A DNA stretch of 64,000 bases from Alphaproteobacteria bacterium (lineage in GTDB: Bacteria; Pseudomonadota; Alphaproteobacteria; Methylaequorales; Methylaequoraceae), in NCBI GenBank assembly GCA_045563015.1, contig JBJKUQ010000021.1, forward strand, positions 1,057 to 65,056, in the 5' to 3' direction. Position numbers: made by a program. Position 1 is the stretch's first letter. Each line of letters begins with the position of its first letter. Positions 27,001-33,000 of the stretch are shown here, one piece after another.

Positions 27001-30000
27001 AATTTTTTAACATCACAAAAAAAGTCATTGTTAATTACAAAATTAGAAAAATTTTACAAAGAAATAATTAGCAGTCTTATGCAAGTTTACATTCAAGAGA
27101 AAAGTGATTTGAATAAAATTAGAAGACTTTAGTGATTTAAATTATTTTATATGATTAGTATTTATGTCGTTTAGATATAAAATAAGATTATGAATACTGA
27201 AAAAGAAAATAGAGAGCTTATACTTGATGGTACAAAGATTCAGTGGCATATGGAAAGAGTTGCAGCTTGGGAAAGAGGTGAGAGAATTGCCCCCATTACC
27301 ATAGATATGGCATTAACAAGAGCGTGTAATTATGGATGCCATTTTTGCTATGCCATGCTTCAAGAAAACGATAGATCAATAATAAATAAAAGAGTGATAG
27401 TTAATTTTTTGGATGATTGTTCAGAGATGGGTGTTAAAGCGGTAAGTTTTGTCTCTGATGGGGAAAGTACAATATCTCCGACATTTGTTGATGCAGTTCA
27501 ACATGGAAATAATTTAGGACTTTCCATGGCCGTAGGAACAAATGGTTTTGTTCTTACAAGGTCTAAATTAGAGGAAATTCTTCCGCATCTTACATATATA
27601 AGAATCAATATTTCTGCAGGAGAAAAAGAAAGATATTCGGAAATAATGGGAGTCAAAGAATCATATTTTGAAAGAGTTGTTCAAAATATTAGAGATATGG
27701 TTGATATAAAGAAAAAAAATAATCTATCTGTCACAATTGGTTTGCAAATGGTATTGATGCCAGAATATTCTGATCAAATTATTCCTTTAGCTAGCCTTGG
27801 GAAGAAACTTCAACCAGATTATCTTATTTTTAAGCATTGCAGTGATAATGAGGACGGTGACTTAGGGGTAAATTATGCAGGATATAAGAAACTCTACAAA
27901 ACATTAAAGAGAGCAGAGTCAATGTCTGACTCACATTACAAGGTTATTGTAAAGTGGTCTAAAATTGATTCAGGAGAAAATAGAACATATAAACAATGTT
28001 TTGGTGCACCTTTTATGATTCAGATTTCTGGATCAGGTTTAGTTGCACCTTGTGGAATGCTTTTTAATGAAAAGTATAAAAGATATCATATAGGTAATAT
28101 TTGTGAAAAAAGATTTAAAGATATATGGATGTCTGATCAATATTGGGAAGTTATGAATCATTTAGCATCCAACAACTTTGATGCACAGACTATGTGCGGA
28201 ACACTTTGTCTTCAACACAAAGTTAATGAAGCACTGGATAATCATATTAAGGGTTTAAAAAGATTGAAACCAATTTTGTCAAGAAAAGTGCCTCATCAAA
28301 ATTTTATTTAAAATTGAAAAATTCAAAAGAAAATATTAAATCTCCGAAAAATTTTGCTAAAGAATATTTTAGAGAGTTAGAAAAGGTAAGAAAGGAAATT
28401 GACTTCATAAAGATAAGCTTTGTGACAGATCTTCTTCAAGATCTATATAAGAATAACAAAACTCTTTATGTTTGTGGAAACGGTGGTTCGGCCGCAATTG
28501 CTAATCATTTTGCGTGTGATCATCTTAAAGGAATACGAGAAAAAACAAATATTAGACCTAAAGTACACTCTTTATCATCTAATATTGAATTAATAACAGC
28601 GATTTCAAATGATATTAAATTTGATGATATATTTACTTTTCAGCTATCAAGTCTTGCAAATAAATATGATTGTTTTTTAACAATTTCTTCATCAGGAAGT
28701 TCAAAAAACATTATTAAAGCAATTAAATGGGCAAAAAAAAATAACTTAAAGACGATAAGCCTTAACGGGTTTAATGGAGGGAAGGCATCTAAAATTAGTG
28801 ATGTGAGTATTAATGTTTCTAGTAACAACTATGGAATAATTGAGGATATTCACCAAACAATAATGCATATATTAGCCCAAAGTCTGATTAAAAAAAACAG
28901 TTCTAAAAAACCCTAAAAATTTTTTTATTGATAATAATAACTATTATCATTGACAATCAATAATGATTATCATATATGTCTAATATTAGTGATTATAATT
29001 GATAATGATTATTAAAATTAATAAAAATAGACAAAGGGGTTAATATGATTATTACTAAAAAAAATCGGTTCGTACCAAAACATACGCGTGGAGTGTCATG
29101 GTTAACATTCCTTCCTATATTTTTATTAAGTAGTTATGTATATTCTAATGATTCTATTATCGTTGCCCCTGATGTTAATATATTTGAATCGCCAGACCAG
29201 GTATTTGAATTACCTGGGTCTGGTGATTACATTCCAGTAGAAGAAATTAGAAAATATAATTTTAACAATATTAATGACATACTTAGAAATACGACTGGTG
29301 TTTATTCCAGAGAAGAAACTGGTTTAGGAATTTTCCCTAACATCAGTATTAGAGGTGTGAACACTTTAAGATCAGCACAAGTAAATATAATGGAAGACGA
29401 AGTAAACATTATGCCAGCTCCTTACTCGGCACCAGATGCTTATTATTCGCCAATTCCAGGAAAAATGAATGCTCTTGAAATTTTAAAGGGAACTAGTCAA
29501 TATAGATATGGCCCGCACTCAACTGGTGGAGCAATAAATTATGTAACAACTCCAATTGATTTTGGACAAAGATATTATGGAAGCGTTTCATATGGATCAG
29601 GAAACGATGTTTTAACCCATGATTACTTTAATTATGGTATGTCGGGCAAGTATGGTGCTATAGCACTTTTAGGTGAGATGTATTATCGTAATAGTGATGG
29701 TAGAAGAGATTTTAATATCGAGCCTCCAACAAGTACCCAGCATAGAAAAGGATATGATAGTGATGAATTAGGTGGAATAAACCATATTGCTCCGATGGTA
29801 AAAATGCTATGGCAGCTTCCTACTCAAAGAAATATAACTTTGGAACTTAAAGCTTCATATAATGATATGAATTATAATGAAGGTTATAGCGGTTTAACAA
29901 CTTCAGATTTTAATGCAAATCCGGATCAAGTCTATGTTGCATATCAACTTGATGAAATGAATTCAGAACAACAAACATATTACGCAAAATTAAGAGCCGA

Positions 30001-33000
30001 TGTGACATCAAATATAAGTAATAATTTAACGGTATTTGCTAACCGTTTTACTCGAGACTGGTTTAAGTTGGCCGATGTTAACGGAGATTCGTTGCAAAAA
30101 TTTACATCAAAGGCTGGAAGTGCTGCTTCTCTTAACTGTGCTAAAGGATCGGCTGCATGTACCATAAGATATGTAAACAATGATAGACAGTACATTTCCT
30201 ATGGTGTTAATAACGAAACAGACTTCAAATTTAACACAAATTACTTTGGAAAAAACATTCAACATGACCTTAAAGTTGGGTATGGTTACCACTATGACTA
30301 TATAAATAGAGATCAGCAACGTCATGCTTTTACACAAGCTATTGGGGGCGGTTTAACTCCTACTGGGGTAACTTTTAAAGATGATAGACATGAAAAATCA
30401 AAAGGTCATTCAGGTTACATAGAAGAGTCAGCAACTATTAATAATTTTGTAATCTCTTTTGGTGGAAGATTTGAATATGTTGATTATCATTACAGAGATA
30501 AAGTTGCAGCTATGGGAACTACCAGTAATATGAAGGAAGAAATGTTCGCTTTCGCACCTGGTGGTGGATTAGTTTATAATCATGACGATAATTGGCAGTG
30601 GTTTGGTGGAGTTTATAAAGGTTTCAACCTGCCTGGACCAGGTTCTGCAAGAGATGATGGTTCACCTGTAGAAAAAGAAACAAGTATCGCAAAAGAAATT
30701 GGTGTTAGGTATACAAGCCCGAACTTTTTTGTTTCTTGGACTGGTTTTCATACTGACTTTAAGGATCTGATTGTAATTGATAATAGTAATGCTGACGGAA
30801 ATCCTGATAACGCTGGTAATGTAATATCAAAAGGTTTTGAACTCTCAAGCACCTATACTCCTGCTGAAGATCTTCAACCATTTGCAGGAAACATATCTTT
30901 TTACGCAAACTATACATTCACCAATGCAAATCTTGATGGTGCCTCTACATCAACAGATTCTGAATCAGCTTTTGCTGGAGGTAGAGATGGGTCTAACGTT
31001 CCGTATGTTCCAGACCATCGCATATCATTTGGTGCTGATTATGAGTATAGTAATTTTGATTTTGGTATAAACATGACTTATCATTCTGAAACTCACGGTA
31101 CAGCCGATGAAAGTGAAACAGAGGAGTTTCAAGGCGCTGCAGATGCAAGAAATGGTAAAATTGATAGTGCGTTCTTGCTAAACTTGTACTCTGGTTATGA
31201 TATTACAGATAATTATAGAATTCAGGCTGGTGTTAATAATGCAACAGATCTTGAATATATATCAACTAGACATCCTTCAGGTGCAAGATCAGGCGCTCCA
31301 TTAACAGCTTACATAAAAGGTGTGGCTAAGTTCTAAAGTTTTCATATGGTAGATTAGCTATTGTAGCGTTTTTCTCTCTCTCATTTATAATGTACAAGTG
31401 AGTCTACCATGTGGAATTTAATAAAGATACTTTCAAGATTTCATTGAATCTCGCTTTTTGATTGTTCGAGTCAGACTATTGTGTATAAGAAATTTAAATA
31501 CAAAAAATTGACATATTTTAATAAGGATTTAATAATCCATTTAGATGTCTACTGAAGATTTTTTAAATACTAAGAAATGGCAATTAAAATATAAAAAATT
31601 TGGGTATAATCCAAAGCTCATTTTTGGGATAGCAAAAACAAAAAAACAACTTCTTTTTTCTTTAAGTTTTTTTTTAACAGTAATGGCTTCAGAAATATTA
31701 TTTAACCAACCAATTAGAAAAAAAATAAGACTTATACATAATAAAATTTTTAGTAAAATTTTTACTGCAGATTTTAATAAAGTTGAGAGAGTAGAATTAA
31801 ATTCTTTTAGCTTTAGCTTATTTATGATTATAAATAAATTATGTAAAGAGGAAGATTTTTCAAAAAAAGATTTTGATTCTTTAATTACTTTTTCAATCTG
31901 TCACTGGTCAACGATATCTAAATTTAATAAAAGTGAGTTTTTAATGAAGTTAGAAAAAATTAAAGAATTATGGGAAACAAATAAAGAAATTATACTTTCT
32001 TTAAATGACGATTTTAAAATAGATTTAATGATATTACTTTACAAAAGTTTTGAATACGGAATTGGTGATAAGGAGATTATAAAAAAAAATATTGCAGTAT
32101 TAGGTTTTTCAATAAGTAAAGTATTTAAGGAGTTCAGATACGATGCAATAAGTGAATTTAAAATTGGATTAAAAAGAGTTAGGGAGCTTTGAAGCTTTAA
32201 TAAGGTAAATCTGTTTTACCCATTAAAAATTTATCTACAGAATGAGCAACTTGTCTTCCCTCTCTGATGGCCCAGACTACAAGTGATTGACCTCTTCGCA
32301 TATCTCCAGAAACGAATACTTTTTTTAAGTTTGTCTTGTAATCTAAATCATTAGCTTCAACATTACCTCTAGCATCTAATTGTATCCCAAGTTTTTTTAA
32401 CATTTTATCTTTTTTAGGATGGAGAAAGCCCATTGCTAATAAAACAAGATCTGCTTTTAACTCAATTTCAGAATTTTTTCCACTTTGTTCTTTTAAAATC
32501 TGCTGACCATTTCCGTTTAGTTGCCAATTAACTTTTTTTAAGTTAATTTTTTGAACGCTATTATTACTACCTTGGAAGCTTTTTGTTGATACACTCCAAT
32601 TTCTTAAGACTCCTTCTTCATGAGAGCTTGAAGTTCTGAGTTTTAATGGCCAGTTAGGCCAAGTAAGTAATTTATTTTCTTTGACGGGAGGTTTATCCAT
32701 TATTTCTAATTGAGTTACTGATTTAGCTCCTTGTCGGTTGGAAGTTCCAATACAGTCAGAACCTGTATCCCCTCCTCCAATAACAACAACGTTTTTTCCT
32801 TTTGCAGAAATCATTTTATCATCACCTACTTTATCGCCTTCACAAATTTTATTTTGCAAGGTCAAGAAATCCATTGCAAAGTGTACTCCATTAAGTTCCC
32901 TTCCAGGAATAGATAAGTCCCTAGGTTCTTCTGAACCACAAGCAAGTATGATTGCACCAAATTCATTTAAAATATCTTTGACATTAATATTTTCACCAAT

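Follow-up and report, generated by a model that had tools for sequence, protein, structure and literature searches.

What does the TonB-dependent receptor gene near the middle of this stretch of alphaproteobacterial DNA import, how is it controlled, and is it unusual for its genome? (We refer to the whole stretch, 64,000 nucleotides of contig JBJKUQ010000021.1, as the window.) A preliminary description of the window, made from the sequence alone, noticed Fur-box-like sites ahead of the gene and predicted that iron represses it. It also took the genome to be SAR11-like, in which case the receptor would be an unusual accessory trait. We find good support for the regulatory prediction and none for the SAR11 premise. 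Our best explanation, which we consider probable, is that the gene encodes a Fur-repressed, FecA-like receptor for ferric chelates, of the siderophore/ferric-citrate class, in a streamlined marine alphaproteobacterium of the order TMED127.

The candidate control region is the spacer between a SIS/GmhA-like gene and the receptor gene. It contains these features:

28917..29044, + strand: regulatory spacer from the SIS/GmhA-like gene to the receptor gene; 128 nucleotides (nt), 15.6% G+C
28930..28948, no strand: Fur box A, GATAATAATAACTATTATC; 16/19 to the classical consensus; abuts the -35 hexamer
28950..28955, + strand: -35 hexamer TTGACA, read from the sequence
28958..28972, no strand: Fur box B, CAATAATGATTATCA; 12/14 to the 7-1-7 form (the 19-mer at 28959-28977 is 14/19); fills the spacer between the -35 and -10 hexamers
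28973..28978, + strand: candidate -10 hexamer TATATG, 17 nt past TTGACA; weak (4/6), with position 6 not T
29000..29014, no strand: Fur box C, TGATAATGATTATTA; 13/14 to the 7-1-7 form (the 19-mer at 29001-29019 is 15/19); downstream of the promoter

In these comparisons, 19-mers were scored against the classical (E. coli) Fur consensus GATAATGATAATCATTATC, and 15-mers were scored against the 7-1-7 form TGATAATNATTATCA, with at most 2 mismatches allowed. For the background, we shuffled the spacer itself 20,000 times while preserving its dinucleotides, the strictest control for AT content. A best 19-mer of at least 16/19 arose in 0.3% of the shuffles (p = 0.003), and at least three 15-mers within 2 mismatches arose in just 1 of the 20,000 (0.005%; p = 5e-5). 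The spacer also contains four perfect GATAAT/ATTATC hexamers (starting at 28930, 28943, 28966, and 29001), and at least four were seen in 0.085% of the shuffles (p = 8.5e-4). Across the 64-kb window, box A is the sole 19-mer with 3 or fewer mismatches (0.08 were expected), and 3 of the 4 matching 15-mers fall inside the spacer.

Much of the preliminary description of this region was accurate: the length and position of the spacer, the four hexamers, and the score of the first box are as it gave them, and the Fur sites do stand above an AT-matched background (p from 5e-5 to 3e-3). The second and third boxes had been scored as 13 and 14, and on recounting they are 14/19 and 15/19. The layout of a TTGACA-17-TATATG promoter that is overlapped by the boxes is also correct, but the -10 hexamer is weak and matches at 4 of 6 positions. 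Because it is also absent from the output of a generic promoter scan, the promoter call leans mainly on TTGACA.

The boxes are conserved ahead of the receptor's orthologues. These orthologues come from about 30 loci in at least five genomic contexts, and their proteins are 56-98% identical. We extracted the 200 nt ahead of the receptor gene from 27 orthologue loci, as well as from the window, and another locus (L035) was fetched later, which gives 28 orthologue regions. All 28 have Fur-box-like sites before the receptor, with best matches of 15-18 out of 19. The best site is at least 16/19 in every orthologue upstream region examined except L021 (the weakest, at 15/19) and is 17-18 of 19 in most of the genomes (for example, GATAATGATAATTATTATC). 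Many of the sites have perfect TGATAAT-N-ATTATCA cores. By eye, and without counting, TTGACA or TTGACT lies among the boxes in the orthologue promoters that we printed, within 200 nt before the start. In L035, two sites of 16/19 are at the same place before the receptor.

These sites are also nearly absent from the rest of the related DNA. In 587 kb, all sites of at least 16/19 are in the roughly 200 nt that precede an orthologue; the rest of this DNA has none. The 260-nt upstream segments make up about 1% of the scanned DNA, yet they contain 108 of the 127 sites of at least 15/19 and 61 of the 62 15-mers with at most one mismatch. Over about 650 kb of related DNA in all, the sites of at least 16/19 are still confined to the regions upstream of orthologues; L033 and L034, which lack the receptor, have no such site. 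This is strong phylogenetic-footprint evidence that the box cluster is a functional operator. Zur and PerR operators differ from the Fur 7-1-7 core at discriminating positions. Overall, the conservation and the shuffles strongly support Fur control at the level of sequence, and iron-repressed expression, as had been proposed, is still the best prediction.

The product of 29045-31336 is a TonB-dependent outer-membrane receptor. Its parts are as follows:

29032..29038, + strand: ribosome-binding site AAAGGGG, 6 nt ahead of the ATG, read directly
29045..31336, + strand: TonB-dependent receptor gene; 763 amino acids (aa), FecA-like, without an N-terminal signalling domain
29150..29170, + strand: putative TonB box DSIIVAP, residues 36-42, a motif read from the sequence
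29204..29533, + strand: plug domain (PF07715), residues 54-163; Pfam, E = 2.7e-14
29867..31240, + strand: beta-barrel profile match (TonB_dep_Rec_b-barrel, PF00593), residues 275-732; Pfam, E = 4.5e-38

The reading frame, the Pfam domains, and the C-terminal sequence (...GVAKF, ending in phenylalanine) agree with the earlier account of a 763-aa receptor with a plug, a barrel, and a terminal Phe. The N-terminus is hydrophobic and resembles a signal peptide, and DSIIVAP follows it. The best NCBIfam model is the TonB-dependent siderophore receptor, to which residues 56-763 align end to end, although the score (143 bits) is under the subfamily cut-off. By the equivalog model for FecA (NF041676), the protein scores 119.6 bits against a cut-off of 1100, which is far too low for FecA proper. 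Nevertheless, FecA was the sole match in a sequence search of the PDB (E = 3e-33). That alignment covers the plug and the C-terminal half of the barrel, leaves the middle of the barrel unaligned, and has an identity of only about 20%.

Structure prediction points the same way. An AlphaFold model built with 45 homologues has a mean predicted local distance difference test score (pLDDT) of 84 and a predicted template-modelling score (pTM) of 0.85; residues 1-56 are low-confidence, and strands run from about residue 175 to 762. The best fold match is FecA with ferric citrate (E = 1e-43; template-modelling score, normalized to the target, of 0.88). FoxA, PqqU, and FhuA rank below it, and the target scores for FecA, FoxA, and FhuA range from 0.74 to 0.88. 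Thus the receptor's class is the siderophore/ferric-citrate type and it is FecA-like, and its nearest relatives, which the preliminary description had proposed to look for, are TMED127 receptors.

Unlike FecA, this receptor has no role in signalling. The plug begins at residue 54, about 20 residues past the signal peptide, which leaves no FecA-type signalling domain, and a Pfam scan of the receptor found no signalling domain N-terminal to the plug. Pfam and NCBIfam scans of the neighbourhood found no fecIR, sigma, or anti-sigma gene near the receptor, and fecBCDE are not near it either. Given the lack of both the signalling domain and fecIR, the receptor is a transporter and not a signal transducer.

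Which organism does the window come from? Among species-representative genomes, the receptor has relatives at 21 loci (60-86% identity), whose names are generic (Alphaproteobacteria or Rickettsiales). Several of these relatives (AG-892-F10, MED652, MED657, AG-337-K15, AG-349-G20, and LRMED-288) belong to the GTDB order TMED127, for which the name Methylaequorales has been proposed (Glass et al. 2025, PMC12542740). Members of TMED127 are obligate lanthanide-dependent methylotrophs with genomes of about 1.5 Mb (PMC12542740). Because the receptor could have been transferred, we also used a core gene, gltD, as a second probe of the lineage. The source names shown for the 120 best gltD matches read Rickettsiales or Alphaproteobacteria bacterium, and none is a Pelagibacter. 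The window and TMED195 (GCA_002170745.2; GTDB o__TMED127; g__GCA-002690875) have a gltD in common at 81% identity. The two genomes also share a gene order (Suv3-like helicase, ferredoxin, CarD, M48 peptidase, two PagL, SIS, a 229-aa open reading frame (ORF), gltB, and gltD), and protein identities across this ten-gene block range from 48% to 94%. Together, the identity of gltD, the synteny, and the receptor's relatives indicate that the window is from order TMED127 ("Methylaequorales"), a marine methylotroph, and not from SAR11. (AEGEAN-169/HIMB59 was considered as the lineage and was dropped once TMED127 had been assigned; the AEGEAN-169/HIMB59 paper has no mention of TonB.) The statement that SAR11 lacks TonB-dependent receptors was correct for Pelagibacter ubique, which has no TonB-dependent transporters (PMC3400609), but it has no bearing on a TMED127 genome.

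Within TMED127, the receptor is an old resident of the gene pool that has been shuffled around, rather than a one-off acquisition. The receptor family is present in over 20 TMED127 genomes and on many metagenome contigs, and outside of the TMED127 group, identity falls sharply to 38% or less. As the preliminary description noted, the gene is locally enriched in G+C (35.5%, versus 22-33% in the neighbouring genes), and as it cautioned, this does not prove foreign origin. Its G+C content at third codon positions (GC3) is 0.21, as compared to 0.18-0.22 in gltB, gltD, aconitase, and ccmF, so nothing in the composition points to a foreign source. (The higher overall G+C reflects amino-acid composition, and all of the receptor's relatives have 28-32% G+C.) The receptor is ancestral and widespread in TMED127 and is an ordinary iron-uptake gene there; since relatives in the order carry TonB, fur, and lutH as well as this family, it is not the unusual accessory trait that had been supposed.

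The gene's surroundings vary. In the window and in a near-identical contig (L022, which was reached through a 98%-identical receptor, P0127), the order is the glycan island, the SIS gene, the receptor, a 215-aa ORF, and gltD. (The window's own receptor sequence had no exact match among the contigs searched.) In L035, whose gltD is 78% identical, gltD is followed by a 194-aa homologue of the 215-aa ORF, a 62%-identical allele of the receptor, and the glycan island. The receptor is inverted in L028, where it lies 3 kb from gltD and beside a glucose dehydrogenase of the type that uses pyrroloquinoline quinone (PQQ). In L001 and L024-L026, it adjoins TonB. In the genus GCA-2691245 and others, the receptor is accompanied by a small ORF, a TupA-like binding protein, a tautomerase-like gene, a set of ATP-binding cassette (ABC), FtsX, and DUF3299 genes, and a Zur-like regulator. 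No receptor lies within 10 kb of gltD in TMED195-like genomes or in L033. The stretch on the far side of gltD, between that gene and the cell-surface glycan island, is thus prone to rearrangement. The preliminary description held that the gene would be ordinary if its orthologues were common and syntenic. They are common, in TMED127, and the synteny is only partial.

The receptor's alleles fall into four groups, which are 55-68% identical to each other. At one locus, L013 and L010 have in common the promoter, the first 50 residues (90% identical), and the flanking genes (90-100%), while their barrels are just 46-76% identical. Similarly, the window and L035 have a common locus layout with different alleles (62%). 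This pattern looks like allelic replacement by recombination, as might be expected for a surface protein under selection from phages or ligands.

How might the system work? When iron is sufficient, dimers of Fe2+-Fur would occupy the three adjacent or overlapping boxes, which flank the -35 hexamer, fill the spacer between it and the -10 hexamer, and lie just downstream, and would block RNA polymerase. When iron is scarce, Fur would leave and the receptor would be made. Once exported, the receptor would bind a ferric chelate; the likeliest ligands are a siderophore from another organism and a complex of the hydroxycarboxylate or citrate-like kind. A TonB-ExbB-ExbD complex that is encoded elsewhere would then engage the TonB box and energise import into the periplasm, and a generic periplasmic system for Fe3+ would take over from there. 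With no signalling domain and no fecIR, the receptor would transport without signalling.

The partners in this scheme are visible mostly in relatives. As had been reported, the window has no tonB-exbBD genes: the scanned ORFs of the window have no TonB, ExbB, or ExbD domains from Pfam, and phmmer with ExbB and ExbD from E. coli found no match in the window or in 35 loci. No fur gene was seen in the 64-kb window. An 86%-identical orthologue (L024-L026) adjoins a TonB_C gene and a second receptor. In the TMED127 single-amplified genome AG-892-F10, both fur and lutH are annotated and transcribed (PMC12542740). The lutH of AG-892-F10 (836 aa, CDS.109) is in the methylotrophy island on contig 1, and its orthologue of our receptor is on contig 2 (CACMWI010000002.1:151713-153998).

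Several observations weigh against the explanation that we favour. The putative promoter has a weak -10 hexamer. At 16, 14, and 15 of 19, the window's boxes are more degenerate than the boxes in most orthologues, which reach 17-18 of 19. The score from the FecA equivalog model (120 versus 1100 bits) does not fix the substrate. With fur, tonB, exbB, and exbD all absent from the 64-kb window, these partners can only be predicted for the source genome. The genes that adjoin the receptor include neither a periplasmic binding protein nor an ABC importer for ferric chelates. In 14 loci, there is a Fur-family gene 2-10 kb downstream of the orthologue, but it scores 100 bits as Zur and 28 bits as Fur. 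Finally, a small ORF that is conserved after the receptor in relatives (described below) is absent from the window.

Could these observations have another explanation? The preliminary reading, an accessory and possibly horizontally acquired receptor in a SAR11 (Pelagibacterales) genome that is otherwise without them, fits a genome that is low in G+C and looks streamlined, with the receptor at the edge of a variable glycan island and slightly above its neighbours in G+C. Pelagibacter ubique does lack such transporters (PMC3400609). Yet gltD and the ten-gene block match TMED195, a member of o__TMED127; no Pelagibacter name was shown among the top 120 matches for gltD; all 21 of the receptor's genome matches have generic Alphaproteobacteria or Rickettsiales names, and those that were looked up are TMED127; GC3 is that of core genes; and the layout of the locus recurs in a diverged lineage (L035). 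We consider the SAR11 account to be very unlikely, and refuted within the reach of these data. Even less credible is that the boxes are a chance product of an extremely AT-rich spacer. GATAAT-like words do form easily at 15.6% G+C, but two results refute this account: shuffles with the same dinucleotides seldom do as well (p of 5e-5 to 3e-3), and the sites are kept before orthologues in unrelated contexts, with no site of at least 16/19 in about 640 kb of flanking DNA that is just as AT-rich. Another Fur-family regulator (Zur-like, or Mur) might bind the boxes, and the cargo might be zinc, manganese, or a lanthanide chelate for XoxF. The Zur-scoring gene downstream of orthologues in 14 loci (100 bits versus 28 for Fur), with a TupA-like tungstate-binding protein and the ABC/FtsX/DUF3299 set nearby, would fit with this, as would the dependence of TMED127 on lanthanides (PMC12542740) and the PQQ-type glucose dehydrogenase beside the receptor in L028. 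But the sites fit the Fur core TGATAAT-N-ATTATCA, perfectly in many orthologues, and score up to 18/19 when compared to the Fur consensus of E. coli; no Zur-like gene is in the window; lutH (836 aa) is a separate gene in AG-892-F10, in a methylotrophy island on another contig; and the closest relatives by sequence and by fold are receptors for ferric chelates. Control by another regulator, or another metal as the cargo, therefore seems unlikely.

Fur control could also be real while the cargo is not an iron chelate: the receptor might take up PQQ, cobalamin, or another scarce cofactor, or it might be mainly a surface receptor that is diversifying under pressure from phages. The PQQ transporter PqqU is sixth among the fold matches, the four allele groups show replacement at fixed loci, and there is no importer for iron chelates nearby. 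However, Fur-controlled receptors are overwhelmingly iron importers. The match to PqqU is generic (17% identity) and ranks under FecA and FoxA, and TMED127 makes its own PQQ (PMC12542740). We judge a non-iron cargo to be quite improbable. A more speculative proposal is that TMED127 has its own low-cost form of metal scavenging, in which glucose dehydrogenase produces gluconate or gluconolactone as a chelator and the FecA-like receptor takes up the Fe(III) or lanthanide complex; the four allele groups would then correspond to different chelate specificities or to phage pressure. The periplasmic PQQ-dependent glucose dehydrogenase is highly transcribed in TMED127, is beside the receptor in L028, and lies next to gltD in L030-L033, where it occupies the position that the 215-aa ORF and the receptor have in the window. 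This proposal is quite unlikely to be correct. A Fur-repressed receptor for ferric chelates is still, in our view, the probable explanation.

Two other features lie between the receptor and gltD:

31340..31416, + strand: long-stemmed hairpin of about 24 pairs, right after the receptor's stop codon; minimum free energy z = -2.4
31545..32192, + strand: 215-aa ORF with no family match; a conserved gltD neighbour in TMED127

The hairpin has no clear U-run and no Rfam match (the Rfam scan of the window returned one tRNA only); it is possibly a terminator or an element that stabilises mRNA. The 215-aa ORF was considered as a candidate TonB and was rejected because it lacks a TonB_C domain, is helical, and is kept beside gltD even where the receptor is absent from the site. 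In 23 TMED127 orthologue loci, across contexts, a different small ORF (105-116 aa) lies about 90-110 nt after the receptor gene (for example, L024:12383-12730, L027:12401-12727, and L028:17140-17457). It has the motif LRESDRxF...LCPxC, has no signal peptide, and does not match Pfam or NCBIfam. It may be an uncharacterised partner of the receptor. Neither this ORF nor a remnant of it was found in the window at 31337-31544 (208 nt), and it is missing from L022 as well.

Some genes that are close to the receptor in relatives are distant from it here. A tautomerase-like gene and a 136-aa ORF are near the receptor elsewhere (L028:19119-19561, L027:13670-14074), but in the window, they are at 10083-10900, 18 kb from the receptor, and glycan-synthesis genes at 11.3-28.9 kb lie in between. 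It seems that the glycan island split the receptor from these former neighbours. (The two ORFs at 10083-10900 were considered as ExbD candidates and were rejected, as one is tautomerase-like and the other has no family.) In L027 (genus GCA-2691245), an orphan TupA-like tungstate-binding protein (12815-13624) follows the receptor and the small ORF, and further on (16740-19843) are an ABC ATPase, an FtsX permease, a DUF3299 protein, and a divergent Zur-like regulator. None of the genes in this metal-uptake neighbourhood (TupA-like, ABC, FtsX, DUF3299, or Zur-like) has a Fur box of at least 16/19.

The first 28,916 nt of the window form a large surface-glycan island with four DegT aminotransferases, two radical SAM/SPASM enzymes, sulfotransferases, an arylsulfotransferase, a carbamoyltransferase, an RgpF-like protein, a GT11 glycosyltransferase, and an HldE-like protein. 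The island at the same place in TMED195 (L030) has wholly different content. Two genes of the window's island are split. The overlapping ORFs at 22703-23170 and 23127-23786 jointly match one 360-aa transketolase-like gene in L022, so this split is a frameshift, due either to pseudogenisation or to an assembly error. An AT3 acyltransferase with an SGNH domain (6116-8175, - strand) is also split into two overlapping ORFs, at T8, A8, and T9 runs near 7440-7500, and could be a phase-variable or frameshifted O-acetyltransferase. On the gltB side, about 25 kb away, the window has a block of methylmalonyl-CoA mutase, alcohol dehydrogenase, and acyl-CoA dehydrogenase genes (58190-63248). In L033, the same block is on the far side of gltD (17897-21449), which points to a large rearrangement around gltBD. 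Among core genes, between COQ7 and a carboxylesterase, there is a stand-alone gene for an HNH endonuclease (56082-56642, - strand).

If our explanation is correct, then TMED127, with genomes of about 1.5 Mb, invests in TonB-dependent uptake of chelated iron, which SAR11 does not, and we predict that the order carries a conserved, Fur-repressed, FecA-like receptor. The box cluster could then mark the iron stress of TMED127 in metatranscriptomes. (Only in 2025 was TMED127, or Methylaequorales, recognised as the lanthanide-dependent methylotroph with the highest transcriptional activity in oligotrophic surface oceans; PMC12542740.) A literature search for TonB, Fur, or iron in connection with TMED127 found nothing specific, and PMC12542740 does not discuss iron acquisition. 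In other respects, the locus is a standard example of a well-known design for regulation and transport. With the SAR11 premise gone, the claim that had made the receptor of special interest is unsupported; a conserved Fur-controlled receptor in a recently characterised order remains. More generally, a low-G+C window from a streamlined marine alphaproteobacterium should not be presumed to be SAR11.

How does this receptor compare to known systems? E. coli FecA is iron-regulated through Fur. It is also the best match in the PDB by both sequence and fold (1kmo, 1kmp, 1po3), and both proteins have a plug, a barrel, and a terminal Phe. The window's receptor differs from FecA in that it is only about 20% identical, lacks the signalling domain, and has neither fecIR nor fecBCDE nearby. 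Fur-regulated TonB-dependent receptors also occur in early-branching Alphaproteobacteria, as in the Fur regulon of Caulobacter crescentus, which reportedly has classical Fur boxes and includes such receptors. Caulobacter is an alphaproteobacterial oligotroph in which a Fur regulon has been described (PMC2724300), whereas for TMED127, an uncultured order with genomes of about 1.5 Mb, the evidence is the conservation of the boxes. LutH (from Methylorubrum extorquens, with the TMED127 orthologue AG-892-F10 CDS.109) belongs to the same superfamily as the receptor and occurs in the same organisms, but it appears to be a separate paralogue, which at 836 aa is longer and which lies on another contig, in the methylotrophy island. 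Last, Pelagibacter (SAR11) and TMED127 are both low-G+C, streamlined marine alphaproteobacteria, but Pelagibacter ubique has no TonB-dependent transporters (PMC3400609), while TMED127 has several.

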